A stretch of 63,988 nt of DNA, filler included, from Rhizaria sp. SCN 62-66 (Eukaryota): NCBI GenBank assembly GCA_001724265.1. It is 3 parts of 3 records of this genome, joined end to end, with 100 filler letters (N's around TTAATTAATTAA, not from the genome) between each part and the next. Parts side by side here need not be neighbours in the genome. Positions count along the whole stretch, not along the records: positions 26,403 to 52,590 come from MEDY01000411.1; 2 more parts are not named here. One strand, written 5' to 3'. Of the stretch, positions 21,799 to 60,948 are shown one piece after another. The position numbers were made by a program, and so were the translations under genes. Numbering within the stretch: the first letter of the stretch is position 1; each line of letters starts with the position of its first letter. Below the pieces are notes generated by a model, which saw only the letters and a list, made by a program, of their open reading frames with translations, did no database searches and was not told the DNA's origin.

Positions 21799-21831
<33 letters not shown>

Positions 21832-30000: not shown

Positions 30001-30976
30001 CCGCCATGGCAATCCCCTGCCTGTCGCTAAAGTCAGCAGCAGCGCGGGCACGCGCACGAGCAGCCGCGTTGGCACAGCCGCCGCCGCCGCCGCCGCAGGG
30101 GACGTTGACGCTGACGCTGACGGCAACGAGGCCGATAGCGGCGACGCTCTGAGCTTTGTGATGAGTGGCGTGACCGTGCGCGACCACACTGATGGCTCGC
30201 TGCCGCCGGAGACTGCTGACGGCCGCGATGACGGCACTCAGTCGCTGTCGCGGCCGGGTACTCAGTCGCAATCGGAGTCACGCTCGCAGGCTCAGACTAA
30301 GAAGGCAGAACCTGCTTCTGGCAGCATCAGCGGCCGCGTCCGTCTTAACAACAGTAACAGCAACGCCAACTTGAGCGCAAACGCTTCGAACGCTCTTGCA
30401 CCTTCCTCGTCTTCGTCATCTCTGCTCTCTGGCCTCAGCCTCACTCTCACTGGCCAGTCCGGTGCACAGCAGCAGCAGCAGCAGCGCGGCGTTATGGGCC
30501 CGCCCGCGTCTGCCGCGCCCGCGCCCGTGCCGGGTCACGGAACCGCAATGCGGGGCGGGAAGCTGCGGCTGCCCGTGCCGCCGGCCGCCGGCGCCGCTGC
30601 CGGCTCGGCGGGCGCGCGTGCCGGCGCTGGCGCGGCGAGCATGGCGCCGTCGCCGCTGAAGCTAAGCCGCCAGCATGTGGCAGTGAACAAACATGCCACG
30701 GCTCAAAGCCAGAGTCAGAGCAGCGCGCAGAGTCAGCAGCAGGCCGGTGGCGCGAGCCCGAGCGCGCACACAGGCTACTTGTCGGTTTTCGACGCTGATG
30801 ACGGCGCGCTCAACAGTGTCAGCAACAACAGCAACGGCAACACTGTTGGCACTGGGCTGCCTGTGGCTACGGTCGATGACGACGCTGCTGACAGCGACAA
30901 CGACGATAAAGGCAATAGCACCGGGCTTGTTCCAGGTGGAGAGGCGACCTGGCTTGACGAGGCTGGGGACTTGTAA
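27011..30976 (+). CDS. 1321-aa long coiled-coil protein with a disordered C-terminal half
   Basis: Uninterrupted ORF with heptad-rich E/Q/A/R/L helices over about aa 170-670. TAA stop. Confidence 0.8.
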   Translation: MSSHGPPAPPGAHSAPGRASGPQQPPQQYLHQQQMYQQHTDSAASAAEGTARFRELNQLRAQLKDSEARREAADSRLARALGRAEAAEAELQRAQASDAAPAAGAGDTAASQDLGGGLTYPGANGGAEQTGLLFPATGLPAAAATAALTSSSLSANANGAGAGAGANARLLDPELFVLQQQNHSLRDRVLSLSAALSAAEADRAALEARAEGDSEELALTRKQVHALSVQVERLRVLSAQHSAAHAGVEAEAARWQREAAAAREEALVHKTQAARAQQDAAAWAGLKAANADAQGAVAALRAQLLAATDEATARQHALQGQLQQSRQFLAELRLEHQRAAEQAAAETAAARAARAAGEAALRQELELSRARSEAEVAALQEEHTETVQAFRAQFRQYREAVEAVFAAEARGFEQRFKGQAKAHEAEIAHLVRAKDHSFNLMAAAKDAKVVSLLDGTNFQRVVLSHQVELEAARQAHEQQLALLRSQLQSEHKQAVYGLKKHVSALNLDLDQAKSELAVAAQQTEAAHAALRRARRAQAAQQQQLRDSVRELTAELAANEALRAAAGEEREALRHKLLRARLLAEGRGDGSADVSVAIAQLQRRAAQLQEETATQATAVAALVADKAAAEKRLERTEAARAAAEAAVARLTQDHTALLRALESVLAARLAGGLAAAQKAGLGKGDALADTLPAKNNNADTTAAAAAAVAAMNGNGAGDAAGGDFSELLSIVRQAMRGLSAAGRLGGIMPSVAGSGARGAGDRDDEDGDEQGHEEEEGGESELAQTKRSPAVAAFVPVAVAVGGGSAAASRAANTNKSSSAATVAAAARGRDRDSQTAANNKRVAALAGGAHGLAPVIIAAEASGFTVTSNNSTANANANASANTRNASSGSISDSAASLALNADLAAGFKQLAAFKAGSRELLRSLRLDQFSPNTVTLPSDGRNGGAGASADLAAGGGSAAAGGSVGGRSAAAAEAEAEALVRKTLRQFGVGVAKGEIRHGNPLPVAKVSSSAGTRTSSRVGTAAAAAAAGDVDADADGNEADSGDALSFVMSGVTVRDHTDGSLPPETADGRDDGTQSLSRPGTQSQSESRSQAQTKKAEPASGSISGRVRLNNSNSNANLSANASNALAPSSSSSSLLSGLSLTLTGQSGAQQQQQQRGVMGPPASAAPAPVPGHGTAMRGGKLRLPVPPAAGAAAGSAGARAGAGAASMAPSPLKLSRQHVAVNKHATAQSQSQSSAQSQQQAGGASPSAHTGYLSVFDADDGALNSVSNNSNGNTVGTGLPVATVDDDAADSDNDDKGNSTGLVPGGEATWLDEAGDL

Positions 30977-37129: not shown

Positions 37130-40100
37130 TTAGACGTCGTATAGTGACCAGTGCGAGCCGCCGAGTAAGAGCAGCCGATCCGAGCCGCGCGTTTGCACGA
37201 CGACAGTCTCGGCGACAGTCTCCGTTGCAGTCTGCGGCAACATGAGGAAGCAGGGCGAGTGGTAGAGAAAGGTGTGACGATCACCGAAAGCAGAACGAGT
37301 GAGCACAAGAAGACAGGAATGAAACTCACAGTACGTGTGATGTTGTTTCATGATATCATCAAAGAGTCGGATTCATGGTTATTAAAGATATTTACGTGAT
37401 GATTAAGAAGACGTACGAGATGCCTGACCGCGGCGAGATTCTGTGACGCGATGGCCCACTCACGGGCCACGCCCTGCGCGTCCACAGTCAGCAGCGCGTT
37501 GCCAGCGCGCACAAAGTGCACTGCGCTCACGGGCTCCGCAGTGTACAGCACGCCGCGCACCTACAGAGCGCAAGAGAAAAGGGGAGCAAATAACAAACAA
37601 CCTTTGTGAGCACACAGACAGATTCAATTCAAATTTCAAAAAGAAGATACACTGGTATACAACAAGAGGACACGACATATTAGCAATTCATAGTCCGCGT
37701 ACCTGTGGGTCAACAAAGAGCGCGAGGTCGTTGGGCGCGCCTCCGCCGGCCATCGCTGCCGCGACAGCCGCGCTGGTTGTGGTGGCCAGGTCGATCAGCC
37801 GCGCCGCGCCATCCGCGCTGCCCACGGCCACGACCACGGCCTCAGCGCCGCGGCCGGAGCTGGCGGCGGCGGCGGCGGCGGCAGCGGCGGGATGGCGGCC
37901 GCTGCCCGCGTTGGCCGCCGAGGAGGCCGCCGCGGCAGCCATGTCGCCCGCAACGCCCGCGCCAGAGAGCAGGGCGGACGAGGCGCGGCGCCACGACGAG
38001 GCGGCCTCGGCGGCCTCGTTGCCGCTGAAAGCGCCGCCGCCGCCGCCGCCGCCGCCACCGCCGCCGCTGAGCTGACTGGCGCGGTTGCCTGCCGTGAGCG
38101 TCGTCGTACGGTTACCGCTCGCGCTGCTGCTGCTGCTGCTGCTGTTGCTGTTGTTGTGGTGGTGGCGGCTGTGGATGGTGATTGCGGCGACGTCAATGCT
38201 AGTGATGGCGACGGGCAACTGCGACATCGTGACCGGCACGGGCGTAATGCCTACGCTGGACCGACTGCCCGCGCCCACCACCACGGGCCCTTCGTCCGCG
38301 CAGTCGCCCTCCTGCGCGCTCTTGGCAGCGCCCGCGGCCGCGGCCAGCGCGGAGGACGACGCCGCGGGGTCAGACAGCACGCCCCAGTCGAAGCCCCCGC
38401 CGCCGCTCAGCGGCGAGTGCGCGTAGTTCGACGGTGATCGCGCGTGGCCTTTGCCTTTCGCAGCGGCACCACCACCGGCGGCTGCAGCGGCGGCGGCGGC
38501 GGCAGCGGAGCGCGGGGAGAGCTGGCTGCTGTTAACGTCGCTGCCGAACCACGACTGCGTGCGCACGTGGCCCTTCTTGCCACCCGCGGCACCGGCAGCG
38601 ATCACACTGACGCTGGGCGTGATGTTGGCGACGCTGCTGCGGCTGTTGCCGTTTTTGGGCGGGCGGTTGAGCCCGAGGCTGACGCCGCCCGCCGCCGACA
38701 GCACGCTGCCACCGGCCCCAGCGCGGGCCCCTGCGGCCGCGCCGCCAGTCGAGCCAGCAGCCGCGGCGGCGGCGGGCTGCAGGCCGGCGTGCGCATGAGC
38801 CTTGAGAGCGGCCAAGTCGCTCCCAACCAGCGCCTGCTGCAGCGAGATCGCGGTGAACCGCCGGATGACGCGCGCAACTGCGATCCACCCAGCAGCGCTG
38901 CTGTTGTTGCTGCTGCTGTTGCTATTGGCGCTCACCGGACTGAGAGTGACCGCAGAACCGGCGCGGGGCGACGTCAGCCGCGCTCCAGCGTTGCTCGCAG
39001 CGCTGTTGCTGTTGGCCGCCGTGGGCGCCATCGCCGAAGGCTTGCGGCTGAGGTCGACGCGCAGCAGAACGCCCGACGCGGTGCCCAGGAACACCTGGCC
39101 CGTGCGCGCGAGCTGGGCCAGGGCCGTCACGCGGTGCCGCAGCCCCAGCCGCGGGTCGCTCAGCGCCAGCCGCGCCCCGCCGCCGCCGCCAGCGCCAGCG
39201 CCGCCACCGCCGCCGGTGTTGCCGAGGCTGGCAAGCCCCACCGCACCGCTTGGCGTCCGCGTCGCGCCGCCACGCGCACCGGCGCCGGCGCTGGGGACTG
39301 CGCCCGCGGCGGCGACGAGGGCGCCCGGGTCGTCGCCGTCGCCGCCCTCGATGGCCGTGACCGCAGACACGGCCCACATCGTCTGCAAGCGCGCCGCGCA
39401 GCCGAGCGCCGTGACTCCCGCGCCCGCGGCGACGGCCACGGCGTTGTGCGCGGGCAGGAACAGACAACGCCACGGCCGCTGTAGCGACTCGACCGTCGCG
39501 CCCGCCACGTGCGAGAGCAGGAACGGCGCGTGCGGCGGCCGGGACACCGGAGGCCACGTGTTAGCGTACGCGGCGGCAGCAGCGGCGGCGGCGGCGAACG
39601 CGGCGGCGGTGGAGGTTGCGGCTGCTGTGGACGCCGCCGGCGCGTTGGTACCCGGCCGCAACAGCGCGCTCGCAGGCACAGCGCCGGAAACACTAGCAGC
39701 AGCGGCGGCGGCAGCGCTGGGAGTTGAAGTGACAGCAGCGGCGGGAGCAGGCGTCGGCGGCACAGCGACGGCGGGCGCGGGCGGGGGGAAAAGCGCCCTG
39801 CGCAGCGCTACAATAGACGCCGTGAGGAACACTGGCGTGCGCCGACCGCCGCCACCGCTGCCCCCGTCGATGTCGCTGCTCGCACTGGCGCTCGTCGCGG
39901 AGGCCGCACCGCTGCTTGCGCCCGCGCCGCCAGAGCTGTAGCTGGCGCTGGCTACGGAGCTCGAGACGAAGGCGGCGACGGAGAGCGTGAGCAGCACCAA
40001 GACGGCGTCACCGTGGCAGGTAACCGCAAACACAAGCGCGCGGCCCGTCTGCGCGCCGCACCAGGCGCCGCACGTCACGCGCACGCTGCTGCTGCTGCAG

Positions 40101-41137
40101 CAGTTGCCGCTAACATTGTTGTTGCTGTTGACGACCCAGCTGCCCGCGGCGCCGGGGGTCGAGGCGTTCGCGGCGCTCTTGGAGCCCGGGGTCGGGGCGG
40201 GCACGGGGGCGAGGCCAACGCGGGTGCTCGCAGCGGCGCCCGCGGCGAAGGGGTTGAAGCCGTGGAGCGAGCGCGCGAGGGAGCCGGCGACGGCGTCGCT
40301 GACGGGACTGCTGTAGTCGTTGGCGTTCGAGCTGGTGGTGTTGTTGTTATTGAAGCCGAAGCCGTCGTCGTCGTCGCTGTCGCCGTCAAGAATGTCGTCG
40401 TCGTCGTCGTCATCGTTGTCATCATCGTCGTCGTTGTCGTCATCGGCGGTCGCGCTCGCGTCGTCGTCATCGTCGTCGTCAATGTCATCATCATCATCAA
40501 GCTCATCGTCATAGTCGTCGTCATCAATGCTTTCACCGCGCTTCGCCTCGTCGTCATCGGCGTCGTCGCCCTCGTTCTCGTCGTCGTTCTCGTCAATCAC
40601 GCCGTCCCGCGCGCGTTGCGCCTTGCCCGCCCGCAGCGCCCGCGCCTGCGCCCGCGCAAGCTCCCTCGCGCGCGCGCCCGCCTTGGCCGCCGCCTTGGCG
40701 TTGACCTTGGCGTGGGCCTTGGCCTGCGCGCGGTGGGCGCGCGCCTTGGCCTTCTTGTCGCGCTCCACGGCCCGCAGCGCGGCGGCAACAGTGAGCGCGC
40801 CCCCGCTGCCGCCGGCGCCGCCGCCCGCGCCGCCCTTGCCGGCGCCGTCGCCACCTCCGGCGCCGGAGGCGTTAGCGGCCCCGCGCGCGGCGCCGTGCGC
40901 GGCGAGGTCGTCGCGGCGCAGCAGGGGCGTGAAGTCAAGCACGGTGTACGCGGCGTCCCAGGCGACGGCGTGGCCAGACTCGGTGATGGCGAGGAACACG
41001 CTGTTGTTGATGTTGGTGACGGCTAGAGGGCGGCCGAGCGGGCAGGACACTTCGCGGTCGTACCGCGCACCGCCATGCAGCGCCTTGCTTGAGCGGGCAA
41101 AGCCGGCGCGGTGCTACTCAAAGGAGTAGAAATCCAT
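37130..41137 (-). CDS. WD40/beta-propeller-like protein with large low-complexity insertions, ~1226 aa; exons 41137-37703, 37560-37417, 37231-37130; in-frame TAG at codon 8
   Basis: Blade-like motifs FLAITESGHAVAWD, VFLGTASGVLLRVD, VAVGSADGAARLID, LLTVDAQGVAREW, WSLYDV*. Two phase-0 GT-AG introns. The nearest upstream in-frame ATG lies 7 codons before a TAG. Confidence 0.72.
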
Positions 41138-41530
41138 CGCTCTCGCGAAAGCCACACACACAGAGGTGGGGCAGGACCAGTGGGTTTGTGACGGTCAAGC
41201 TGAATCTAGAAGGAGTAACGGGCTTGAGGAGTATCGTCTGCCGGGAATACAGAGGTTGGATGCTTTCATGTGAGTGTAGAATTTAAGAGAATACATAAAA
41301 TCGCATGAATATATACAATACCAGAGACATGCGGCTATGAACTCTCAAATGCTCTCAAGGCAGTAGATTTGTTAGAGGTCATGCTCATGTGCTGAAACAG
41401 CGCGCCTGACAGTCGGCAACTTATCTTCAGTCGAAATGACATATCCTGACCGTCAGCGTGATTATGATTAGCGGTAGGCAATTTAAAACTTACATGAAAC
41501 AACTAATATATTATTCGCACTCCAAAACAG

Positions 41531-42668
41531 ATGCTTCGCGGCTCCCTGCGACTGACTCGCGCGCTCTTTGGCGCGCCAGTCCCCGTTCCTGCCGCAGCCA
41601 CAGCTTCGCTCGCCGGCCTCTCGGTCTCTCGTCCTTCCCTGCTCACCCAACCAACCCGCGCGTCTTCCTTCTCACCCAACAGCGAGGGCGGCGACCGCGA
41701 GCGCCCGTCAGTGATGCCCTTCGGCAAGTACCGCGGGCGCCCGCTGGAGGAGATCCCGGCGTCGTACGCGCAGTGGCTGGAGAAGGAGGGCGGGCTCGTC
41801 AAGCGCGAAGGCCTGCGCCGCGCCTTCGCCGAGATGGGCATGCTCAAGGACTTCCATCCCTACGACTACTCTGCGCTGCGCGCGAGCCGGCTGAATCCTT
41901 TCGTGGCCGCGCGCGCGGGCGCCCCGCTCTCCCCCGATCAGATCCCGCCCTTCTGGGGCGCGGGGCTCGCCTTCCACCCGCTCCCGGCCCCCGGCAGCTC
42001 TCTCAGCAGCAGTGACAGCGCCACTGCAGTGGCCGCGAAGGCGAGGGAGCCCGGCGCGTTCGACGTGGACGCCGCCGACCTCGCCCTCAGCGCCCCCAGC
42101 GCCCCCAAGCCTGACCCCGAAGACGGCAACGACTACGACGATGACGACCGCAGCGCTGGCTCGGGCAACGCCGCCGTGAACCCCGCGAGCGCAGCAAGCG
42201 ACAGCAGCGCGGCGGCGGCGGCGGCGATGACCCCCGCCGCATTCGTGCCGATCGAGACTGCGCTGGCGCGCCTCTCCCCGTCCGCGGCCGCCGCGCTGCG
42301 GCCCTTCGCTGCCGTTCCGGCCTCGCTGCCGCGCCACGTCATCTTCCTCGACACCGAGACGGTCTACACCACGGCCATGATGGACCTGGAGAACTCGCAC
42401 ATCGCGCAGCTGGGCGCCGTTGACGGCGCGGGCAATGAGTTCCTGTGCGACGTGCGCCCACCCGTGCCGTTCGCAGCCGTCGCTGCCGCCTCAGACTGGT
42501 TCGCGCGCCACGGCTTCGAGCGCTTCTTCAGCGCCACGAACCCGCGCTTCGCGGACGCGTGGCCGCGCCTCAACAGCTGGCTTTTCTCCCCCGCGCACGG
42601 CCGCGCGCGCTGCGGCGAGCGCGCCACGGCCGACGCCGAAACTGCCCCCGCCACGGCTGAGAGCGCAG

Positions 42669-42699
<31 letters not shown>

Positions 42700-43867
42700 G
42701 TCCGAGCCCGAGCCGCTCGCGGGCGACCCCGCGCTAATCTACAGCATCAACACCGCAGGCACTGGCACTGGCGCTGGCGCGGCGCCGTACCGCGGGCCCG
42801 TGTTCTTGATCGGCCACAACTTAGCGCGGTTCGACATGCCACACATCGACAAGGAGCTGCGCCGTCTCGGCCTCGTCAACTCCGAGTTTAAGGCCGGGCT
42901 CGATGTGCGTGCGCCCGTGGCGGACGCGCGCTCGCAGCTGTTGACGCACGGTGGCGTGCGCATCATCGACACGCTCGACATGCTGCCCGGCTTCACCGCT
43001 GTCGAGCAGTCCCCCGGCCGCGGCGCGTGGGCGCTGACGAACCTGCTCCACGCCTTCACAGGCAGCCCGCCGCGCAACGCGCACGACGCGCTCGACGACG
43101 CGCGCTCGTTGCGCGCGCTTTTTTTTGCCGACAACCTCGCCGGCGCCTTTTTCCGCGCCGAGCTCGCGCGCCAGATTGCTGCCGCCACGCCCGCAGCGGT
43201 CGACTTCGCGCCAGAGCACCTCCCCGCTGTCGCCACGCTTGAGGGCGCGGCGCGCGGGCTGCTCGCGCTCAAGCCCGCGCCGCAGACGTCCGGGCTGGCG
43301 GCCGCCGCGCGGCAGCAGACGCGGCAGGCGCCCGCGGCATCCCTCTTCGGCGGCCGCGGCGCCGGCGCGGCGTTTGAGGCCTCGCACGGGCTCGGCTTCC
43401 GCGCCATGAACGCCGCGCCGCCCGGAGGCTTTCCTGAGGAGCCCAGTAGCGCGGGCAGCTCCAGCTCCAGCTACAGTAGCAGCGGCGTCGGTGGATCGCA
43501 GGGACAGAACGGCTACACGGCCTTTGCGACGTCCAAGAGCGGCAAGGTGTACGCCTACAACAAGGACAAAAGCGCGACTGGCACCGGTGCGCCCGCCAAG
43601 AAGTTAGGCCGCCCGCCTGCATCCAGCTACAACAACAACAGCAGTGGCGCTGCGGCGGCGACGGCGACCGCGGGCGCGGCTGCTGCGGGCTTGTCCGGGC
43701 TGAGGAGCGACGGGCCCGAGGACGGCGACTACGGCTTCGGCGAGGGCTACGACGACCACGGCGACGGGGACAGCGGCAGCAGTGGTCGTGGCTCTGGCGG
43801 CGGTGCCTCGGGACGCATGATCCAGCCTCCCAAGGAGCCCATGAGCGGGGACTTTATCGCAGAGTGA
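41531..43867 (+). CDS. DEDDh 3'-5' exonuclease with a putative mitochondrial presequence and an N-terminal MPFGKY (DUF3820/ExoX-C-like) module
   Basis: ExoI IFLDTET, ExoII IGHNLARFD, ExoIII NAHDALDDARSL. MPFGKYRGRPLEEIPASYAQWL module. Arg/Ser/Leu-rich, acid-free N-terminus. TGA stop. Confidence 0.85.
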
Positions 43868-44625: not shown

Positions 44626-46983
44626 TCACTTGGACTGGAAGGAGATAAATGAAACAACTATATTCATGCGCGCCTCAAGGCGCTCCAGCACATCAGCGTC
44701 AAATGGCGCCCCATAGTGTTGCGGCATCCATTGAGCAAAGCGCGACATCACGCGGCCGACTGGCACGGCGCCGCGCAGCAGGCTCACCGGGCATGGCTTG
44801 AAGACGATGAACAACGGTGTGTTTGTTGATGGGCTGTGAGGATAAATCGAGCGGGGATACATCAAGACTGTGCCAACGGGGTGTGCTGCGGTTTCATCAA
44901 GGCTAGCAGCCGTGCCAGTCGACGGCGCATGCTCACCGTAGACGAGATCGTGCTCCGGGAGAACCAGAGGCGCAGTGGTACATCCCTAATTTGGGCATGA
45001 GCAATCGTCGAGGGACAAGGCGAAAAACGGCAGCGACGCCGCAGATGAAAGCCCGGGCGGCAGAAAACACGTGTGCAGCCGTTTTCCCAGGCCGTGATTA
45101 TTCGCCGCAACGCGGAAGTACGCGGCGTTGCACGGAAACGCCTCGTCATCAGGCCGGATTACCATGATGTACATGTCTCGCTGCTGCGCCTGTGATCTGG
45201 AAAACCGCATTGAAAACACGACATCTGACGTCATATTCACATCCTTTAGTTCCCCCCGAGCGTCGCACAGGACGCACTCGCGCGCCCTGGCCTGCAAGAA
45301 AGTAAGCGTGGCTGCGGACGGCGGCGCACGGTTACTCTCCATTTGTCCATTGTCGGCGCCATATCGCGGGTAACCGCTCTTTGTCAGACGGGACGCAATG
45401 TACGCATTGAACGCAGTTTGCCAGCTATCGTGCGCCCCTATAAACACACTCGTCTCCGCGAGAGTCTGTCGGCGCGCCTCCTTTGTTGCGTCAGTGATAG
45501 GTGCGATCAAACGCAAGTCGGCGAGCAGTGCGTAGAATTGCATGAACTCGTGCTGTGCGGGACTGCCACCGTCCTCTTGCATGTCCTCCTCATAATGCAG
45601 TAGTTTGACTATTTGCAGCCCGCGACACGCAATGAATTCGGCCACAGAGGGGTTTGGTGGCGCATCGCCGCTGCCGCGCACTGCAGGGCCTGGCGATGTG
45701 TCGCTGGCGTTGGTGCTGATGCTAGCGCTGATCATCACGCGCAGCACGCGCAAGAGCAGCGCCAGATGCTCCATGTTATCCAGCCGGTTTGATACGACGA
45801 AATGCTTCAGAACTGTGCAGCAAATCTTCATCGCACCAGCGGCAAGCAGCTGCTGCGCCTCGTGCGCAACGTCGGTTGCGGCGTTGAGCATGCACTCGAA
45901 CACTAACGTCGTGTTGTCAAGAAGCGACTCAAAGCACATCAGTGGAATCTCGTTAATCTTCTCATTAATGGTGCCAATAATCCGCACGAAATTAGGATCA
46001 CGAGAGAGCCTGCACACAAACACAGGAAATCGGACTGTCAGTGGCGCAAGTACACTCATGAACGCTTCCAGATGCGCTAGAGCGCACATTTGGCTTGCCT
46101 CAAACGAAGACAGAATAAATTCAAAACGATGCTCAGGAAAAGCGCACGTAAACATTTCATCGTCGAATATCTCCACAAACTTTTGCAACAGCATCAGCTT
46201 CTCTGCGTCTGCGAAGTCCAACAGTGTGACAAATTCGCTACTTGCAGCGAAATCCAAGAGATCACTTCGCCAACACCCTTCATTGCTACCACTGCCACAT
46301 GAAAACAAAACAAACAAAGCAGACAACACGATGTGGCTGGTCTTCTCCAAAGACCATTCATAACTCATGAGAATGCCGCGCAGCACGGGAACGAACGCGG
46401 AAACAGAGTCGTAAGAAACCTTAGGTGTGCTCGAGACGACGGATGACAGCAGGTTGCAAGCTGCGGCTTCATCTACAGTAACAGCAACGCCGTTGTCGTC
46501 AACCAGCCCGGAGCAACGCATGTACGCCAGAAGATGATACAATACGACCTGCTTGACCGGAGCGGTGAGGTCCGACTTGCGAGCGAGAGTATGGATGAGC
46601 GAGAGGATACTTGGCGCGATGTCCGCGTGCAAGCGATGAAGAAGAGGGAGAAGCTTTTCAACAATGCCGCACTAAACAAGCCAGTTACACCCATCTTTGC
46701 CCCCTGTTATGCCCCAAAAGAGAACAATCATGAGTTGAAGCCGCGCAATAATAATCTCGTTGTCGGATGTGAGATCGAGCGACTGCAGAAGCAGTGTCAC
46801 GACCCCGCTCTCGCGGATGATATCAGTCGCACTCGAGTAACTCAAGCATGCACGGGTGAGCTCCGTCAAATCGGAGGACTTTGCAGTCAGAGCAGTTGCA
46901 CAGACCACTGCGGCGTGTAGACGGAGAATTGCTCGCGACATCCCCTGATCGGATTGATCATCGTCGAGTGACTGTTGACTCAT
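44626..46983 (-). CDS. ~785-aa armadillo/HEAT-like helical repeat protein containing two in-frame TAG codons
   Basis: ORF-track ORFs 46672-47022, 44986-46632 and 44626-44865 share one frame and are separated only by TAG. ARM-like motifs IIRESGVVTLLLQSL, WLV*CGIVEKLLPLL, LLAAGAMKICCTVL, FIACRGLQIVKLL. Ends at TGA. Confidence 0.75.
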
Positions 46984-47717: not shown

Positions 47718-50700
47718 TCACGCCGAGTCGACAAAGCGGACAACGCGCTCGACGAGCCCCAGCGGGCGCAGCGGCGCAAGCGCGGCGGCGGCGAACACGG
47801 GCGCGACTGTGCCCGTAACGTACCACACGGCGTCAAACACCCCGCTGTTGATGCGCACGCCACTGGGCGAGCCGGGCGGGTAGTGGTTCGGCACGGGCGC
47901 GCGCTGCAGCACGTCGAGCAGCAGCTGCGCGAGCGCAAACGACAGCACGGCGCCCGTGGCGGCCACGGAGACGCCCGCGAGCGCGTTCTCGGGGTGCAAG
48001 TACCGCACCGCGAAGGATGTCAGGGTGACGAGCGCAACCCCCGTAAGGCCGGCGACGATGGCGGCGCACGGCAGCACGCCGACGCCGGCGTCCGCGGCCG
48101 TAGGCAGCGTGGTGAGGAAAAGCAGCAGCGCGAAAGCCACCGCGAAGCCCGTGGAGCGGGATCCCGCGGCCTCGGCCCAGCGCGCGCCCAGCAGAGCGCC
48201 AACCAGCAGCGCGCCGACGACGACGCCGAAGCGCACGTCGGCGGCCGCCGGGGTCACGTTGAGCGTGTGCACGAAGAACAGCGGGCCCGCGTTAAGCAGA
48301 CACAGCCCTGGCAGCGGGAGCAGCAGCGCCACGGCGGCGACGACCCACGCCTGCCACGTCGCGCACAGGTCAGACAACGGCAGCGGCGAGAAGTCGCCCT
48401 CGAAGTCGAGCGGCTCGTCGCCGATGTCCAGCACCGCGAACTCGCCGCCACCGGGTACAGCAGCAGCGGCGGCAGCGGCACTAGAAGCGCCCGTCTTGGC
48501 CGCGCCGTCGCTGTCGCCGTGCGCGTTGACCGCGTGCGAGAGCGCGTTGTTGGGCACGGGGTAGAGCGGCGCGGGCGGCGGCGGCAGCGGATAGCGCCGG
48601 CTGCTTCCGCCGTCGTCCTCGTCGTTGTCGTTGAGGTTGGCCAGGCCCAGCTCGAACGCGGTATCATTTGCGTCTGTGGCGTCGTTATTATTGTTGTTGT
48701 TCTTGTTGCTGTTCTGAGTAGCGCTAGAGTCGTTAGGGTGCGCATTGAGTGTCGCGCCGCCAGTCGCGCCTGCAGAAGACGCGGCGTCGGGCGAAGCTGC
48801 GGCCGCGACCGCCGCGAAGGCCGCCGCGGCGTCGGCGCCCTCCTCAGCGGCCGAGTCGTCCTCAAGCTGGTCGTCATAGGCGTCGACGCCACCCTGACCG
48901 CCACTGACGCTGCGCCGACTGCCGCCAGACGTTGCGCCGCGGCCCGTCTGCTGCAGCCGCGCGCGCTGGGGCGTCATCGCAGCGTCGCCGCCGGTGTGAC
49001 GCTGTCCACTGCTGCCGCTGCCGCTGCCGCTGCCGCTGCTGTTCACCGCGCCGTTGCTGTTGCTGTTGCTGTTGTGCGCCTGGTGCGAGCCTGCGCCGCG
49101 GAGGCTGTAGCGCGCGCTGCCCGGCGCCGCGGGCGGCTTGCCGTCCCCACTGGCGGCGTCGGCGGCCTGGCGCTGAAGTGTGGCCGTCACGAGATCCACG
49201 TCGCGCGGGCCGGTAAACCAGCGCGGGTCCACCGCGGGCGGCTGCGGCGTCGTCTGCCGCTCCGTGTCGACTGGGTGCACGGCGCGGTCGCTGCTGACGC
49301 CCACCGCGGTCACCACAACGCCAGTGCCGGACGGACTCGTCACACCGTTGCCGTTGCTGCCGTTTCTACCGCTGCCGTTAGAACCATTGCCATTGCTGCC
49401 GGCCGCGTCGGCGGTGGAGGGACTAGCGCCGGCGGTGTCGGTGGCGCCTGCAAGGCGCTTGAGGGACGCGAGCGTCATGGGCGTGACCTTGCGCACCTTG
49501 GTCAGCAGCGCGATGGCGCCCCGACCCGCCGCGCCGGCGCCCGCGCTCATGGCCGCCGCGACGCCGCTGCCGGGGCCCGCCGCCGTGCGCACGGAAACTC
49601 TCGCGCCGCCGGGAGACAGGGACGAGGCCGAGGAGCGGCCGCGGCCACCGCGGAAGGCCGTCGCGAGCTCCACCTCAACGGCGTCGCGGTGAATGGCCTG
49701 TTGTTGAGATATAACAAAAGACGAGACACGATGTACAAGATGAGAGAGATGGAGGTCAAAATCGATTCATATAGTGGATTACACAAAGTTATTGATACAT
49801 CATATTTTAGAGAGTCTTCATATTAGTCCAATTTAATTGTTGATACATTGTTGTGAGAACATACCTCTTCCTCGGTGGCAAACTCGCCATAGCCGCGGCG
49901 GATGCGCGTCGAAAAGCGGCCCTGCAGCCTCTTACGGAACGCATTGAGCCGCGCGAAGCTGAGCGGAAAGCGCCTGCGCGCGGGCGCCGGCCCGTCCTCG
50001 TCGTCCGCGTGCACGTGGCCGTCGATGCCGTCGGCGGCCGAGTCCACACCACCGTTGTGGTGGAGTCCGTCGCCGTCGGCGTCGCCGTAGCCGCGCCCGG
50101 GCGAGTTGGGCATTGGGTCGTTGCCGTCGCCCGTAGCGCCCGACACGCCACCCGCGCCAACGCCGCCGCGCAGCGACGCGAAGGCCTCAGAGAATATGGA
50201 GTTTGTGCGCATGTGCAGTTTGATCGCCTCCGTCAGCAGCGGCGAGGGCAGCAGGTAGAAGAACCGCAGCGGGAACGCGAAGAGCGCAGCCAGGCACGCG
50301 TGCGCGGCTGAGGCGAGCGGCGCGCCCAGCGCAGTGGCCATGAAGGGCGTCAGCAGGCGGGACAGCCCGGCACCGACGGCGGCCGACACGAGCAACAGCG
50401 CGGTGGTAGTGGCGGGCATGTCTAGGAACCAGGACGCGCTGAGCTGCAGCGCCGACACTAGCGCGGCGCCCAGCGCGATGCCGTAGACGGGCCCCGCGGC
50501 GAGGACGTACGCCGCGGGCGCCGGGGACGCCAGGGCAAAAGCGGCGGCGATGCGGGCCGCGACGAAGAGAAACAGCGCGAGAGTGTAGGTGGCGCGCGGG
50601 GAGAGCGTGCCGCGGAGCGTCAGCGGCAGCGACAGCGCAATGGCGATGCCGCAGAAGAGCGGGCGCAGCGACGCCGCCGTGTTCACGTCGACGGAAGTTA

Positions 50701-51385
50701 AGCCGCGCTGAGCCTTGACGACCGAGGGCGTGTAGGTCGCCTCGAAGCACAGCGAGGGGCCGAGCAGCAGAGCGAAGGCGACGGAGGAGGCCAGGAAGGC
50801 GCAGCGCCAGCGCCACGAGTCGAGAGCCAGCCAGTCGGACTCGCCGTCCACGGCGCCGCCGCCGGCCTCCGCGCCGCCGCCGCCGCGCCCGCCCAGGCCG
50901 TAGCCGGCGCCGGAGGACGAGGACGAGGACGAAGAGGAGCGGGGCTGTGTGCGGGCTGCGAAGATGGCGGCGTCGGCAGCGTCGAGCTCGTCGAACACGT
51001 CGTTGGCGTCCAGCGCCGCGCTCAGCGAGGAAATGTACGCCGCCGTCGCGGTAACGGACGCGGCAGAGGATGGCGCGCCGCCACTGCCGCGGGCGGGAGA
51101 CAGCTGCTGCTGTCCTTGCTGCTGCTGCTGCTATTGCTGCGAGGCTGCGGCGGCTGCGGCTGCGGCGGCGGCCTTGGTGCGAGGGGCGATGATGGTCTCA
51201 ATGTCGTCGTCGTCCTCGTCGCCGATGATGCCGGAGCCGGCGTTGGCGGCGATCGCGCCACTGCTGCTGCTGCCCGCGTTAAGACCGGCTGCGCTAGCAG
51301 CGTTGGCGCTCAGGCCTCGCTCATGGTCGTCGTCGTCGTGCAGCGCGGACGAGCGCAGCGCGGTGAAGCGGGCGGGGCGGGACAT
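47718..51385 (-). CDS. Divergent MFS-like transporter with a very large central loop, ~1166 aa; exons 51385-49865, 49697-47718; in-frame TAG in a poly-Gln tract
   Basis: Two bundles of about six hydrophobic helices. GPVYGIALG...SASWFLD and DLCATWQAW resemble OFA/MCT-type MFS features. Phase-0 GTATGT...CAG intron. TGA stop. Confidence 0.75.
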
Positions 51386-52590: not shown

Positions 52591-52690
52591 NNNNNNNNNN
52601 NNNNNNNNNNNNNNNNNNNNNNNNNNNNNNNNNNTTAATTAATTAANNNNNNNNNNNNNNNNNNNNNNNNNNNNNNNNNNNNNNNNNNNN
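52591..52690. other. Artificial contig spacer
   Basis: 100-nt block of Ns containing TTAATTAATTAA (52635-52646). Confidence 0.98.
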
Positions 52691-55600
52691 CGGGTGCGCG
52701 CCGCAGGGACGGGCTGCACGAGGCGCTGCTGATGGGCTTTGCGCCGCAGGTCCAGGAGCGGCTCGCCGCCGGGGAGGGCGACGAGCTGGCGGCTGTGGCG
52801 ACAGCGCAGGGCCGCGAGGCGCGGCGCGGGGCGCGCAGCGCGCGCGCGGGCGCCGCTGCGGCCGCACGGAGGGCCGGGCGCGCCGCTGTGCACGCGCTCG
52901 AGGCACACACGGCACACGCTTATCACTCTAAACGCGGCAACGAGCGCGGAGCACGTGGCGGTGGATGTCGTGCGTGCGCGCGCAAAGCGGCGGTCGTGGC
53001 CGCGGGCGCCGCTGCCGTGGCCGCCGCCGAGGCCGAGGTCTCCGCGGCGGCTGCGGCGGAGGCGGCTGAAGCCGCGGCCTTCGCAGGCGTGCCGGGTTGG
53101 GCCGCGGCGGCCGAGGAGGAGGCCGTGGCCGTGTGGGCCGCGGCGGCCGCTGCGGCGATCGCGGGGGCTTTCGCGCCGCAAGTGACCGTGAGCGCCGTGA
53201 GTACCATGGTTACCGTTGGTACCGTCAGTAACAGTAGCTCTGGAGTAAATACTTCGACTGCTGGGATGAACAACAGCAGCAGCAGTACCGGCTCTCAGAT
53301 GATTGCGTTCGCCCCGTCCTCATCGTCGTCGTCTTTGATGCTTAAGGGGGGCGCTACTCACACGAGTGTAAGTGTGCTGCCGATGACTGCCGCGGTGTGG
53401 GGAGGCTCTGACTGGGCTACCGGCGACAGCACTGCCGCGATCAACAACACCTTTAACTACAACAACAGCAGCAACAGTAGCGCTGCGAATGATGGCGCTT
53501 TGCTGTTGGTAGCGCCGTCGCCGCTGCTGCAGTCAATGCAGCAGCCTCTGTCTCCCCGCATCACCGCTAACAGCACTGATAACGCCACACCTGCGAGCGC
53601 CAATAGCAACGTCAGTGCAAGTGCGAGCGCGACCGCGAGCGCCATGGCGACTAGCGCGGCCAGCCCGAGCCCGAGCCCGCGGTTCAGCCCCAGTGCCAGC
53701 CCTTGGCTCGGCCCACAGTCTCTCACACAGTCGCAGTCTCAGTCTCAGCTGCAGCTGGCGCCGTGTAAGGGCCTCCCCGCGTGTAAGGGTTCCTTCGACG
53801 CCGACGCCGGCGCCGGCGCGGCGCTGGCGTGCGGGTGCGCGTGCCAGTGCAAGTGCCGGTGCGCGCAGCTGTGGACCCGGAGGCTGCAGCCGCACGCGCT
53901 GACCACGACGCCGACGCCGCTGCCGCCGCCGCCGTCGTCCTCGGCGACACAGCAGCCGCAGCCGCTGCGGCCGCCGTCGCTGTCGCAGGCCCCCTCTGCG
54001 GCCGAGTCTGCACTGCAGCAACAGCAGGAGCAGCAAGAGCCGCACGGGCACAACCAACAGCAACAGCAGCAGTTTGTGTGCTGTGGCGTCTGCGGCGGGG
54101 CCGTCCTATCAACATCGTCATCGTCGTCAGCGTCTTTATCATCGCTCTCTGTTGCTGGCGCTGTCGCCGGCGTGGAGCACGGACTCGTGCGGGAACCCGC
54201 GAGGGAGCACGTGAGGGACCGTGGGCACGGGTACTGGGCGTACGGCGGCGTGCGCGAGAACGCTGTGCTGCTGGTTGACACTGACGCCCAGTCACAGTTG
54301 CAGTTGCAGCTCCAGCTCCAGGCACAGTCGCATTCAGCCTCAGCCGCAGACAATAGCTCTGGTAACGCGATCGTGAACACGGACGGGGATGCTGCTAACA
54401 GCGACAACGTCAATCCTCCGACGAATGCGGCCACTGCAGCGTTGACTGTAGCAACGGCAGTGACTCCGTTCGGATGCTTACCGACGCCGGTACCGCTGCC
54501 GCTGTCTTTGCGCACACGGTCACTCTGCTCACGGTCACTTCGCTCACGGTCATTCTGCTCCTGCCCTGCACCAGCGGTGTCGACCCAAGCCACTGCAAAC
54601 GACGGGGCCAGTGCGAATGCGAGCGTGAATGTGAGTGTTAAGACTGTGCCGCTGGCGGAGATCCCCTTGCATTTCCCCTTGGCGCTGCCATACCGTCCCT
54701 TGAGCGGCACTTACACCGCCGACGGGGTACTTGGACAGGCTAACGACGAGACCCTTACACGGAATCGTCGCTGTCGTCGCCGCCGCGGTAGTAGCCGCCG
54801 CATCAACGTGGCGACTCCTTTAGCCAGTCTGAGCGCGAACCTGGCCCGTCTAAGTATCCCCTTAGCCGGTGTAAGCGCCCTGCACCTGGAGGACGCTTCG
54901 CCCGCGCTGCTGCGCTCGCTGCTGGCGGCGCCCGCGGCCACGCTGGCGCCCGCCGTGGCCGCCGCAACGGGCGTGGCGACTGCCCTGCCCTATAGCCACA
55001 ACAACGCTCTCAACAACAGCAGTTGCGGCTGTCTCAGCGACGATGATAGTGACTCGTGCTCGAGCTATGACTCCGACTCTGGCTCTGGTTCCGGCTCTTA
55101 TGATAGTTACGACTCTGAGACCGAAGCTGAGCGCGAGACTGTAATTGGAGCCAAGTCTGACTCTGACGGTGACTCCGACGGCGACGATGACGAGTGCGAG
55201 TGTGAGTGCGAGTTTGATTACCTCGGCAACGACTCTGACTCGGTCTATAGCAACGGCTCTCTGAGTGAACACGACGATTACCATGACGACGATGACGGCG
55301 ACGGCGATGGTGACGACGGCAGCTACTCTCGTCGCCGTCGCAGTCGCCGCTCTCGCCGTTCTCGCGTTGCGTCGGTCGAAGTTCAGCAGCCCTCTGCGTG
55401 GGAAGTTAAGCCGCACCTGTCGCACCGGTGCAGCGTTGGCCCCGCTCCTGTGCTGCCCCCTTACTCCATCCCACAGTCGCAATTGCCGTCGTCGTCGCAC
55501 TCGCCCCGTGAGAGAGGCATCAGCGGCACCACCAAGAGCAAGGCAAGGGCTGCCGCCGCCGCCGCCGCCGCCGCCGCTGCCGGGTCTAGCCCCAACCTCA

Positions 55601-58600
55601 ACTCGAGCACCAGCGCTAGCAGTGGCACGGTCGTTGTTTCCGGTGCTGATCTATCGCCGCAGTCTCTGGCGCGCGCAAAATCGCATCCCCACACCGTCAG
55701 CAACAGCAACAGCAGCGCGGACGTTGCTGTTAGCGCGAGCTCTAGCACTGCTGCAGCTGCGAGTTCGAACAGTGCGCTGCTGCTGCCGCCGCAGCCGCTC
55801 ACTTCGTCTCTCTCAGACGGCGGCGCGAACAAGAGCGCTAGCAATAACACAAACAGCACCGAATCAACCACCGCTGCCGCTGATACCGCCGCTGCCACCG
55901 CTGCTGCTGCTGCTTCAGCGCTATCACCGCCCCAGTCCCCCACTGTGTCCCCATCAAGCAACAACAACAACGATGCGGCCAGCGCCAGCACCAGCAGCAC
56001 ATCATCCTCCACAACCGCGACCGCAGCGACGACGGCGACAGCGCCGCGCCGCCGCTCCCGCCTGCCGTCATCGCCCGGCGCCGGCGCGCACCCGCCGGCC
56101 GCGCGCGCGCCCCCGCGGCCGCCGCTGCCCGCGACGCCCCCGCTGCTGGCCGCGCCGCCGCTGCCGTCGGCGCAGCGCCGGTGGGCGCCCGACCTGCCGC
56201 CGCTGCCGCCGCTGCCCGCGCTGCTCAGCCCGCTCGGCGGCCCCCACGGCGGCCCCCATGACGACGGCGACCGTGGGCAGCTCGACAGTGATAGCGTTAG
56301 TGACGGTGAATATGGAGGCGCTGGAGTGATGCCGGCGGCCCTGTGGTTTGCCGCTGTGCGCGCGGTCCTGGGCTGTCCGCAGTGGGGCTACTGCGACACG
56401 GTGCCGGCCGCGCACGTCGTCACCGCCGCCGCGCTCTATAACAGCAGCAACAGCAGTGACAACAGTAACAACCAGAGCAATGCGAGTAGTGCGAGTGTCG
56501 GTGATAGTTCAGTTGCGAGTCAAGAGAAGGACACTGAGCAAGAGCGTGAGCGCGAGCAGAGGCAGAGGCAGGAGTTGTTTCTCATGCTTCTGCTGCCGCC
56601 GCTGCCCGCCGCCGCGCCAGCGACCGGCGCCACTCACCTCGCGCAGGCCTCCTACTTAGCCGCGACTAAGGGGCACTTAGACATCGCGGCTAAGTACTCC
56701 AGCCCCGCACTGTCCCGCACCATCAGCCACGTCAGCACCACGATCGGCGCCGTCGCTGCCAAATACGACGGTCGCGGTAGCCGCGGCCGCAGTCAGAGTC
56801 GCCAGAGCTCTCGCCAGCCCGCCCTGGCCATCGACCCCGTCAGTGTTGCCCTCGCCGCGGCGGCCGCGCGCGGGGGTTGCGCGCGCAGCGCCGGGCTGGC
56901 GGCAGCGGCCTCGCTGTCGTACGGGGCGGCGCTGGTCGCGCTCGCGGAGCACTACTGCCGCGCAATCACCGCCGCGTCCGGGCTGCTGGCGCCGCCGCCC
57001 GCGCTGCTGCAGACCACGAACAGCAACGCGAACAGCAGTGGCAGTAGCGGTGGCGCTGTTGACCCAGACGCCGTCCCCGCCGGTTCCGCCCCTAGCGCCG
57101 CCGCGAGCGCGAACTCAAGCGCTGGCGTCGCCAACGGTAGCGCTGAGAGCTCCCACTGCGTGGCCGTGGCCGGCGGTGTGGCGCCCCCGTCGGTGGTGCG
57201 CGGCGGCTGCCGGCGCGCCGACGCGGCGCTGCTGGCCGTGGCGCTCAGGGAGGCGCTCACGGTTGCGCTGGCGGGCTACCGCGCCGCCAGGGCCAGGGCC
57301 AGGGCCAGTGCTTCCGCCAGCGTGAGCGCGAGTGCCGGCGCCAACGCGAGGCCAGCTGCTGCTGGTGCTGCTGGTGCTGCTGTTGGCGCCGTGGCGCCTG
57401 CTGCTGTTTCTAGCAGTAGCGCAAGCAGTAGGCGTGTGTGCTGCGGGGGCAAGTGTGAGGGGGTGAGGTCTAAGAGCGACGTTAGCGACAGCAAGATCTC
57501 CAGTGATATCGAACACAACGATGCAGCTAAGTCTCCTGCTGCTGCTACTGATGTCACCGCGACCGCGACTGCTGGTTCTGTTGCTGCTGCTGCTGCGAGT
57601 CGCCCTCGCTCTCGCACGCACCGCCACGCTGCGCTGCTGCAGCAGCACTACGCCTCGGTTCTCCGCTCAGACTCTGGCGCCAACAATGGCTCTAACTCTG
57701 GCTCTGGCTCTGGCTCTGGTTCTACTGCTGCTGCTGTGTCGAGTGCCGGTACCGGTGCCGCCCACAATTTCTTCGTCGACGTCTCCTCGCTCCCGCCCCT
57801 TGCCAGCGCTCATGGTCACGGCGACACCGACGACGGCGAGAATGTAAGTGGCAGCGGCGACGGTGGCGGTGATGTAAGGGTGGGCTCGGCCGGACAGGCG
57901 CTGTGTCTGCGCAGCCGGACGCTTCCGCTGCTGCCGCTTGCGCGCGCACTCACTCCGCTTCAGCCTGCAACGACAGGTACTACAGCTACCACTGCGGTGC
58001 AGTCGAGTGCGTCTGCGGCGGAGAGTACCACGAGCAGCAGCAGTAGCTCTGGGAGTGTAAGTACCTACTTTGACGACGGGTCCTTTGCGCTGTCTGAGGC
58101 CGAGGTCGCCGCGATTTATGCGTGGCGCAAGAAGTGCGCCGCCGAGTCTAAGGGGGTACTTACCCAGTCTAAGGGTGCGCTTACCCCTGCACAGTCCGAC
58201 TCGCCGCCGCTCGCGCTCGCGCCGGCGTCGCGTGTGCTGCTGTCCTCTGTCGTCTTCGCCACCAACACGCCCAGCACGATCACGATCGCGAACATGGGCG
58301 CGGGTGCGAATAGTGCCACGGGCACGACGACTGGCACGACCACTGGGACTAGCTCTGGCTCTAGCTCTAGCGCTAGTGCGGGTGCGAGTAGTAATGGGGT
58401 GATGTCGCTGTTGTCCGTCGCGAGAAACAGCGGCAGCAGCAGCGGCAGTACACCCGTGCTCACGGTCACCGCCCCCAGCGACAGTGACTCCTCGGACCCT
58501 GCAGCCAAGACAGCTGACCACAACAACAACAGCAGTGTGCCCGGTAAGGACAATAACGGCGAAGCGGGTGGCGACTATGACGAGCTCTGTTTGCCGCCAC

Positions 58601-59239
58601 TGCCTCTGCCTCTGCCTCTGCCTTTGCCGTTGTCTGCCAGCGGTGGTCTCACTGGCAACGGCAACGGCAACGGCAATCTCAACGGTTGTCCGCTGTACAA
58701 GCCTTCGTCGCGTGCGCCGTCCCCGAGCCACTCACCCTCAGTCTCCCCGTCCATCTCGCCCTCGTTGACCGCTCTCGCCGCGATCACCACTGGCGGTGTC
58801 ATTGCTTCCGGGAGTCTGAGTGCGCCGGGCTCGGGTCTAAATACCCCCTTACACCACGCGATCAGCGACCCCGAGTTGGAGACCTCGCCGCTCTCAGCCA
58901 CGCTCGCCTCGGGCCCCCGCATCTCCTCGCCGCAAAAGGACCTCTCTGCCGCAGCTACGACCGCTGGCACTGGTGCTGCTGCTGCTGCTGCTGCTGAGAG
59001 TAGTAGTAATGAGATGTTGCGCAAGGCGTACAGCGCCGCGGCTGCGGACGCCGCTGCCAAGGCCGCTGCAGTCGCGGTCGCCGCCGCCGTCGCCGCTGCC
59101 GCTGCCGCCAAGGCCGCCGCCGGAGATGCCGCCGCCGCCGACGCCGCCGCCGCCGCCGCCGATGCCAGTACAGCCCGCACGCCGGTCGCCACCCCTGTGT
59201 CTAGCCCCAACAAGAACAAAAACAAGGGAAAGAGTCATG

Positions 59240-59298
<59 letters not shown>

Positions 59299-60948
59299 GG
59301 CGATTCTGTCAAGATTGCAGTGGCCAGCGCCGACTCGGCTACTCCTGGTGCGACCTCAAGCCCATTCACTCCCAGTGCCACCGCAACTGCGACTGCCACG
59401 GCGACAACAACAACAACAGCAGCAGCAGAGACAGCGGCGGCGACGGACGTGACGACACCAGGTAGCCCTGCCACTCCCATCTCCCACTCCCGCCGCCGCA
59501 AGGGCAGCAACGACAGCCGCGACAGCCGGGACAGCGGCGGCCGGGGCCGCGGCAGTGGCCGGGACTGGCGCGGGCGCGGGCACGCGTCGTCGCCCTTCTC
59601 GGGGGCGGGTTCGCCGTTCTCGCCGCCGCCACCGGGCCACTCGGCCGCGGCGGACGCTGCGGGCGCCGCGGAGACGACCGTGTTCATGTCTCGGCTCTTC
59701 GCGGCACACAACGCGGCAGCGGCGGCACAACAGCAACAGCAACAGCAACAGCTGCACAGCAGAGGCGGCAGCAGGGGCAGCAGTGTGAATAACACGCCGA
59801 CACGCACGCCCATTCGCGCCGCCAACGCTGCCCACGGTCACGCCCACGGTTACGCTTACAACGACTCACAGTCACCTGTGTCACCCCGCCCGCACTCGCA
59901 CTCGCATGCGGTGCAGGGCGCGGCAGTGCTGGGCACTGTGGACGCGGGCATGCTCCCGGTGCTGGCGGTCGCGGCTGCGCTCAGTCCGCGCTTCCGCGGC
60001 TTAACTTTGCAGCCCTCACCCTCGCCGTCGCCGTCGCCGTCGCCGCCTCTGGGCGCGAGCGCTGGATCTGGCTCGATTAACAACAACAACAACAACAATA
60101 CGGTCAGTCGCAGCAACAGCGGCGTCACTGTTGTGAAGCCTTCCGCGTCCCCGCTGGTCCAGAGCAAGAGCCAGAGCAACGGCGACGTGATGTCTGACAT
60201 TGCGACTGCCGCGACTTCCCAGGGTGACCGTGAGCAGGCGCTCTCGGGCCAGGACCAGGACGAGTGCGTGCGCGTGGCTGAGCAGGATCCCGACAGGGCG
60301 CCCGTAGGCGACTGTGACCAGAAGCAGGAGCAGGAACAGGAGCAGGAGCTGGAGCGCGGTGATCTGTCCCCGTCGTCGTCCTTTTCGTCTTTTGTCTCGC
60401 TCTCGCCGCCGCCAGACCTCTACCAGTCGATGCACCCCACCGCCATCACCGCTTCCGCGTCAGCCTCAGTAACCGCGAGCACTGCTGCTGCTGCTGGTGC
60501 GAATGCGACCGCTGCCGACGGCGCTGCTGCGACGGACAGTGGCGCCGCCGCCGCTGCCGCGGGGCCGGCCCCCGTCGCGGCGCCCGCGCCGCCCGTGCTC
60601 TCCCCGCTTGCCGCGCTGGCCGCCGCGGCCGCCGCGCGCGCCGCCGCCTCGGCCGCGGCCGCTCTGGACGCTGCGTCGGACCCGCTGCTGCTGCAGTCGT
60701 CGCTGGCGCAGGGCGCGTGTGCGGACGTCGCGCCCCCGGCCTGCGAGGCGCTCGCGGGCGTGTTTGCGGGCGTGCTCGAGGCGCCGCTGGACGCGTGCCG
60801 CGACGAAGTGGCCGCGCTGGCGCGGATCAACGCGGCCAAGGCGCGCTGCGACCGGCAGTGGCTGCTGGCATGGGCTGAGCTCGAAGGCGTGCTCAGCCGG
60901 CGCGAACTGCTCACGGCCGCGCTCGAGCGCGTCAGTGAGTTCAAATGA
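52691..60948 (+). CDS. Giant (>2738 aa) low-complexity hypothetical protein, probably 5'-truncated by the contig start
   Basis: The frame is open from the spacer to the TGA at 60948. Short ordered-looking islands (e.g. GHGYWAYGGVRENAVLLVD, LWFAAVRAVLGCPQWGYCD) lie among A/S/N/Q/P tracts. No family recognised. Confidence 0.75.
59242..59298 (+). repeat. Perfect (AACAGC)9.5 coding microsatellite encoding (Asn-Ser)n
   Basis: Read directly; one of many coding tri- and hexanucleotide repeats in the window. Confidence 0.92.

Follow-up and report, generated by a model that had tools for sequence, protein, structure and literature searches.

We analyzed a stretch of 63,988 nucleotides, filler included (hereafter the window), from Rhizaria sp. 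SCN 62-66 (assembly GCA_001724265.1; 34.9 Mb in 714 contigs). The window joins three contigs, and on the minus strand of the second one (C411) a two-exon membrane-protein gene carries a TAG codon in frame at 51133 (Table 1). Removal of the 167-nucleotide intron gave exactly 1166 codons with a TGA end, and the TAG (51133-51131) shares its frame with the ATG at 51385. Around it the minus strand reads TCG CAG CAA TAG CAG CAG CAG CAG CAA GGA CAG CAG CAG. A sequence-only reading of this DNA had described the site as SQQ*QQQQQGQQQ, linked to that ATG in an otherwise intact gene of ~1166 amino acids, and the sequence bore out both points. In a fourth-order coding model the same frame scored best on each side of the TAG. 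Since one frame codes across it, Ser-rich and Ala-rich shifted frames are unneeded, and a frameshift or an intron around 51133 was ruled out. The sequence-only reading had also named what could overturn it, namely a base-call error, a nonsense allele or a downstream start; the last was excluded, as the next in-frame Met is residue 323, beyond the first three predicted membrane segments. Among the contig pieces listed, none bridged 51131-51133 and no other letter was listed there. The codon-85 TAG was thus confirmed as a real observation. Hydropathy of the 1166-codon protein showed 8 strong hydrophobic segments in two clusters, which may point to a transporter, and a Pfam search with exon 1 and exon 2 returned 0 families.

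The behavior of stop codons was then compared in a non-random sample of 878 kb, taken from loci of kinases, dyneins and tRNAs, from 200 kb of a single contig and from the window, on which a six-frame coding model was trained. At 159 stops after strongly coding DNA, coding went on after 16 of 28 TAG, 0 of 68 TAA and 0 of 63 TGA. Inspection by eye took 3 of the other 12 TAG for continuing frames and the remaining 9 for wrong frame, antisense or intron. Codons flanked by coding support on each side numbered 139,286 and included 18 TAG, 1 TAA and 0 TGA. The single confident in-frame TAA (L139, G000:C148, minus strand) stands before a poly-Q run beside a kinase domain; its gene is one of a small set of similar kinases, and a broken copy or an error may account for the TAA. 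When the window gene 44629-46983 was used as a genome-wide query, 64 matches contained 45 TAG, 3 TAA and 1 TGA, whereas random nonsense would give a TAG share of ~0.5 (P ~1e-10). Strict gene ends (n = 37, from the 878 kb of 34.9 Mb) comprised 25 TAA, 11 TGA and 1 TAG, the last in a short, doubtful frame, and the dynein gene ends seen were all TAA (7/7). In-frame TAG was therefore found without a like pattern of TAA or TGA, while UAA and UGA terminate, as in UAG-only codes. As in-frame TAG recurs genome-wide and TAA and TGA do not, the codon-85 TAG is beyond chance.

Three further in-frame TAGs of the window were found unchanged in contigs from other sequencing runs. That at codon 104 of gene 44626-46983 was bridged by a contig of run X4, that at codon 666 by a contig of the polyA RNA run X5, and that at codon 8 of gene 37688-41137 by contigs of X2, X3 and X4. 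X4 and X5 come from a separate, later study and both have their own single-nucleotide polymorphisms; X2 and X3 are apparently one data set, the X2 study is possibly that of the source, and neither was counted as independent. UAG made up ~0.3% of Glu codons in genes with high GC content at third codon positions (GC3), and 3.6% in one family, where the choice of stretches enriched it. TAGs within Pfam matches of dyneins (7), DEAD and Ras proved to be intron 3' ends or lay in unaligned stretches, and a kinesin TAG lay at the edge of its match; all were left uncounted. Searches of the ABC, SMC, SNF2, myosin, tRNA-synthetase and EF-Tu families gave no usable TAG. A readthrough context was also considered: C followed TAG at +4 in 23 of 62 cases against 16.4 expected (P 0.04), which is no higher than after GAG (273/818), so no such claim is made. 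Taken together, we are highly confident that UAG is read as a sense codon in the nuclear code of this uncultured protist, and in this part the sequence-only reading stood; the residue it had proposed, Gln, is probably wrong.

To assign the residue, alignment columns at the TAGs were compared with those at ordinary codons. Of the 45 columns from the paralog family, 3 with fewer than 10 rows were dropped and 42 entered the statistics; five further TAGs from added fragments fell in loose columns. The single-residue log-likelihood over the 42 columns was 16.5 for Glu (E), 13.4 for Lys (K) and 4.8 for Gln (Q). The mean TAG column held A.13, D.09 and R.06, close to E codons (.11,.11,.05) and not to Q codons (.06,.04,.13), which favors Glu. 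In a cross-validated E-versus-Q score, TAG lay above all but at most 1 in 20,000 draws of CAG or CAA, and this rejection held with E and Q dropped from the features. Columns with a Q share of 35% or more made up 9.5% of those at TAG, compared with 33% for CAG and 27% for CAA, which is not the behavior of a Gln codon. Columns with 35% or more of E likewise made up 9.5% at TAG versus 34% and 26% for GAG and GAA, and for the rare codons ATA and AGA the share of their own residue was also halved or worse. Some columns placed TAG at E in 32 of 37 rows and at E 21 plus D 10 of 38; Q topped 7 of the 45 family columns (up to 26/37), and Trp led none. A TAG in UBE2J1 stood in a column (n = 155) of D 99, N 16, E 16, S 10 and Q 1. 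Were UAG Gln, the silent transition would make TAG behave like CAA (or as TTG and TTA do for Leu), and its failure to do so argues against Gln. Pure Gln is thus rejected by the columns, which lean to Glu but contain a real share of Gln.

The CUA pattern scan gave 22 matches, and 13 loci (distinct candidates besides six tRNA-Ile hits) were submitted to ARAGORN. One tRNA gene with anticodon CUA was found (G000:C84:76008-76080, minus strand) and no second copy; tRNA-Glu(CTC), in comparison, occurs at 7 places. The CUA tRNA scored 58 bits in Rfam, is followed by a T-run and lies between two GC-rich genes. Folded for minimum energy, it does not form a cloverleaf (z -1.5), and the cloverleaf is that of Rfam and ARAGORN. 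In a comparison with the genome's tRNAs for 14 amino acids, it agreed with Glu(CTC) at 36 of 53 fixed positions and Glu(TTC) at 30 (acceptor 11/15 for both), with Lys(CTT) at 24 (acceptor 8/15), and with Gln(CTG) and Gln(TTG) at 22 and 18 (acceptor 2/15). Identity to tRNA-Glu was 47/73 (64%). A phage-collection search gave 19 best hits with 77-85% cover and weak E-values, and the 10 annotated among them were all tRNA-Glu. Moreover, the tRNA has U11-A24, U13-G22, A46, no residue 47, U35 and A37, described as Glu determinants in E. coli (PMC9976931). These features point to a Glu-type body derived from tRNA-Glu, which would probably be charged with Glu. No Gln-type CUA tRNA was present among the 22 matches, barring a long intron or an assembly gap. 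The 23 matches to a pattern for UUA and UCA suppressors, inspected by eye, yielded nothing but a tRNA-Lys(UUU). Separately, tRNA-Ala(AGC) occurs in many copies whose T-loop is atypical and which lie in repeated clusters of Ala-Ala-Lys tRNAs (L002, L005, L029 and others).

The sole eRF1 gene found carries T32S (in GTS), G57S and T58K before NIKS, and all 118 homologs that have a residue at position 32 show T (118 of 118). A bond between T32 and the G of UAG is described in PMC5304391, as is the change of T32 to Gly in Iotanema, so that the two genomes differ in T32G versus T32S; Iotanema's standard-code relatives keep GTS intact (PMC9161772). The stop-recognition motif is thus changed, in a way that may impair recognition of UAG. 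The eRF1 gene itself holds an in-frame TAG (Table 1), in a column (n = 120) of E 106, D 12, V 1, gap 1 and Q 0. At the genome rate, the chance of a TAG in this pre-chosen gene is ~0.05. A database protein identical to this eRF1 (P0001) begins right after the TAG, a case of the truncation that standard-code gene callers impose on TAG-bearing genes. A metagenome scan gave 32 eRF1 loci; one was identical to that of this genome, possibly from the same source and not counted, and the rest were at most 69% identical. The presence of this TAG hints at a possible feedback control of termination. Mimivirus and Megavirus eRF1 genes likewise have internal stops, which could give such control, though with recoding under the standard code, whereas here UAG is sense genome-wide and the feedback hypothetical; PMC3521657, which describes the viral case, states that cellular eukaryotic eRF1 homologs lack it.

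Several results weigh against the assignment of UAG to Glu. The conserved core of the dyneins, 47,783 aligned residues, held no TAG, and none was found at an invariant catalytic residue. TAG columns resembled E less than did those of ordinary Glu codons (P 0.0002-0.0009, or 0.015-0.025 without the E and Q features). The family columns come from related paralogs that are not independent, so all P values drawn from them are optimistic. A mixture fit of the TAG columns gave E.44, Q.31 and D.14; the well-conserved ones were E 4, D 4, Q 4, A 3, P 1 and L 1, and the likelihood of Lys was near that of Glu. A NEK kinase has TAG opposite Q in NEK1, and in a captured copy of ubiquitin TAG stands at a position that is Q in the genome's own ubiquitin. 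Kinase columns drawn from paralogs were loose. In eRF1, the closest relative (P0002, 84% identical), which keeps T32 and has T58K in common with this genome, shows V at the TAG site. The mixture method also assigned AGG and AGA, both Arg codons, largely to Lys (K 0.84 and 0.72), so it can track mutational neighbors. Conserved AGG columns were 62% Arg, and AGA columns 24% Arg over 25 columns, their Lys-likeness probably being an effect of mutational neighbors.

Our preferred explanation, which we consider likely, is that UAG is a rare sense codon for Glu alone and UAA and UGA are the stops, Glu insertion and tRNA charging being deduced from the sequence. A related possibility, which we hold unlikely, is an ambiguous UAG: the Glu-bodied CUA tRNA would be a substrate of GluRS and GlnRS alike, and a Glu/Gln mixture would be inserted, maybe in competition with eRF1. 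A mixture of ~0.65 E and 0.35 Q fitted 7.6 log units above E alone, the conserved E and Q columns are equal in number, and the usage of TAG is far below the 6.5-32% of synonymous codons in published UAG-only codes (PMC11687900). In addition, C36 is a GluRS determinant which A36 removes, and E. coli amber tRNAs are often Gln-charged, a mischarging favored by U35 and G73 (PMC9976931). A CAG>TAG path would, however, yield just such a Q share: the Arg codons CGG and CGA, a single transition away from CAG and CAA, showed Q shares of.11 and.10 versus.10 for TAG, just as AGG is drawn to Lys. We read the Q share in TAG columns as mutational, arising by CAG>TAG transition beside GAG>TAG transversion, and the acceptor stem of the CUA tRNA, with 2/15 positions in common with the genome's tRNA-Gln, also speaks against charging by GlnRS. 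UAG as a synonymous Gln codon, as in Iotanema spirale, was the sequence-only proposal, and it now seems improbable. It draws on the change of eRF1 T32 in both genomes, the Q at the NEK1 and ubiquitin sites, the columns topped by Q, and the Q-rich stretches around 5 of the 18 confident TAGs, a rate that resembles CAA (28%) and not GAG (0.7%). The poly-Q setting does not name the residue, though, as CAG>TAG transitions would explain it. A count of codons at 828 poly-Q centres, the check that reading had called for, gave CAG 479, CAA 123, CTG 26, GAG 11, CGG 5 and TAG 3; TAG is as rare there as the non-synonymous neighbors, which leaves a synonymous Gln codon unsupported. The lack of a Gln-type tRNA, the rejection of pure CAG or CAA behavior and the Glu-rich TAG columns all tell against it as well.

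It is very improbable that the standard code applies, with the TAGs as base-call errors, nonsense alleles or pseudogenes and perhaps a weak background amber suppressor. TAG is indeed very rare, most TAGs in Pfam matches (dynein, DEAD helicase, Ras) are intron 3' ends, the 3 TAA and 1 TGA reveal broken copies within the family, and depth in related runs is ~5-7, with TAG 51133 unbridged by the contig pieces listed. Against this stand the TAG:TAA:TGA ratios of 45:3:1 and 18:1:0, the three window TAGs unchanged in X4 or X5, the TAG inside the only eRF1 gene found, the intact CUA tRNA, and the near absence of TAG at gene ends. Another residue, most plausibly Lys, has a very slim chance: Lys comes second in likelihood and CUU>CUA is one change, yet it leads no conserved TAG column and is the method's default for loose polar columns, and the genome's tRNA-Lys, with G1-C72 and a 5-nucleotide variable loop, matches the CUA tRNA body at only 24/53.

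Under the assignment to Glu, a duplicated tRNA-Glu(CUC) would have gained C36A and so pair with UAG, not UAA, and GluRS would charge it through its Glu-type body. T32S would weaken the contact of eRF1 with the third-position G, so that the tRNA usually wins. Decoding by one CUA tRNA gene is probably costly, which would hold UAG down to ~0.3% of the Glu codons of high-GC3 genes. Further TAGs could arise from GAG by a silent transversion, or from CAG by the commoner transition, a Q>E change tolerated in loose regions. The codon-85 TAG is most likely of the latter kind (SQQ-E-QQQQQ), and its CAR-rich tract is the likely source through a C>T transition. A further, rather doubtful view is a code change at an ambiguous stage in a GC-rich protist outside the ciliates, in which a lone Glu-bodied amber tRNA, perhaps carrying Glu and Gln, contends with a part-blinded eRF1 under feedback through the eRF1 UAG; extra release factor would then cut short its own synthesis.

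Table 1 Features of the window and the eRF1 TAG (positions of the window unless a locus is given)
Feature	Position	Strand	Remark
In-frame TAG, codon 85	51131..51133	-	sense codon, most likely Glu; residue taken from genome-wide evidence
CAR-rich tract QQ-TAG-QQQQQGQQQ, low-complexity N-terminus	51104..51139	-	sequence
Exon 1, 507 codons, first hydrophobic-segment cluster	49865..51385	-	1166-codon membrane-protein gene
Intron, 167 nucleotides, GT..AG, GC 0.32	49698..49864	-	predicted from sequence; no spliced read seen
Exon 2, second hydrophobic cluster, terminal TGA	47718..49697	-	1166-codon membrane-protein gene
785-codon gene, lower-GC3 paralog family	44626..46983	-	no Pfam family; family gave most TAG columns
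In-frame TAG, codon 104 of gene 44626-46983	46672..46674	-	column E 10, K 5, T 3 of 25
In-frame TAG, codon 666 of gene 44626-46983	44986..44988	-	variable column
In-frame TAG, codon 8 of 1149-codon gene 37688-41137	41114..41116	-	frame
In-frame TAG in eRF1 at human E107	L031:1594-1596, G000:C63	-	followed by rare Lys codon AAA

The family of gene 44626-46983 has roughly 50 or more members of ~800 amino acids (L218-L256, L258-L260), with an N-terminal part that looks armadillo-like by eye and a conserved C-terminal domain, neither matched in Pfam, and is far richer in TAG than other genes. One member (L208, G000:C681:2300-3600) is fused to the captured ubiquitin with its TAG and to a Peptidase_S74 domain, an intramolecular chaperone of phage type. 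Elsewhere in the window, 15880-25419, 26984-30976 and 52691-60948 hold very long, nearly intron-free low-complexity genes with abundant runs of Ala, Ser, Asn and Gln, a gene type that is typical here. A 778-amino-acid gene at 41507-43867 on the plus strand gave a short QSregVF_b Pfam match (E 1.7e-6); by eye it has a DEDDh-type exonuclease motif set, and its product is possibly targeted to mitochondria. The linkers between contigs contain TTAATTAATTAA between N runs (26347-26358 and 52635-52646) and are artificial, and the 2769-amino-acid frame 52639-60948 begins inside one of them.

As for the organism, at least 11 dynein heavy-chain loci, a mitochondrial-type EF-Tu and GT-AG introns indicate a flagellated protist, with a GC-rich genome and spliceosomal introns. 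The stretch is present in bioreactor, wastewater and activated-sludge metagenome runs, one of which is a polyA metatranscriptome. No named close relative emerged from the kinesin tree, the dynein hits, the cluster names or the divergent 18S. Ubiquitin genes start with MSMQIF and several end in GGHPQ (L209, L210, L215), their copies being collapsed or truncated in the assembly. The MSMQIF start suggests a Ser insertion reminiscent of the extra residue at polyubiquitin monomer junctions in Rhizaria (PMC12930898, PMC13746701), with no junction assembled here. On balance we lean slightly towards Rhizaria as the lineage. The 18S rDNA is very divergent, 4.4 kb long with about four group I intron-like insertions (L207, G000:C706:4459-8903), and a His/Cys-rich stretch in the first of these, seen by eye, may encode a homing endonuclease.

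Only rarely do UAA and UAG differ in meaning, and nuclear codes in which UAA stays a stop while UAG does not are few. UAG alone is reported as Leu in the rhizarian exLh and TARA phyllopharyngean ciliates, as Gln in Iotanema spirale, Hartmannula, Trochilia and Protocruzia, and as Ser in Scotinosphaera (PMC5304391, PMC11687900). The present genome has their common features, namely UAG as sense, UAA and UGA as stops and a CUA tRNA, but the residue is most likely Glu instead of Leu, Gln or Ser, and usage of ~0.3% contrasts with the ciliate UAG-only codes, where UAG is 6.5-32% of synonymous codons and occurs in 78-91% of genes (PMC11687900). In Oligohymenophorea sp. PL0344, UAG is also Glu, through a tRNA-Sup(CUA) most like tRNA-Glu; there, however, UAA is Lys and only UGA stops, whereas UAA is the main stop here, and PL0344 has 10 CUA tRNAs with 69-93% identity to tRNA-Glu against one with 64% (PMC10553269). 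Peritrich ciliates and Blastocrithidia similarly insert Glu at UAG by a tRNA-Glu(CUA) and avoid reassigned codons in highly expressed genes, but both UAA and UAG are Glu in them, while UAA is not sense here (PMC11687900, PMC12153298). Blastocrithidia also reads UGA as Trp, and its change is tied to AT pressure (PMC12153298). In our literature search, mostly of open papers and main texts, UAG as Glu with UAA and UGA as stops was not found, and an earlier report is possible.

If the Glu assignment of UAG holds, with UAA and UGA still terminating, it would add a new code table and one more independent case in which UAG has parted from UAA. The tRNA, the release factor and the codon usage can here all be seen within a single genome. 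A code change in a GC-rich genome would run counter to the AT-pressure account given for Blastocrithidia. With UAG used so little, a single tRNA for it and a UAG within eRF1 itself, this organism would be a natural test of the ambiguous-intermediate model, and its occurrence in bioreactor, wastewater and sludge runs means that metaproteomics could test the assignment.
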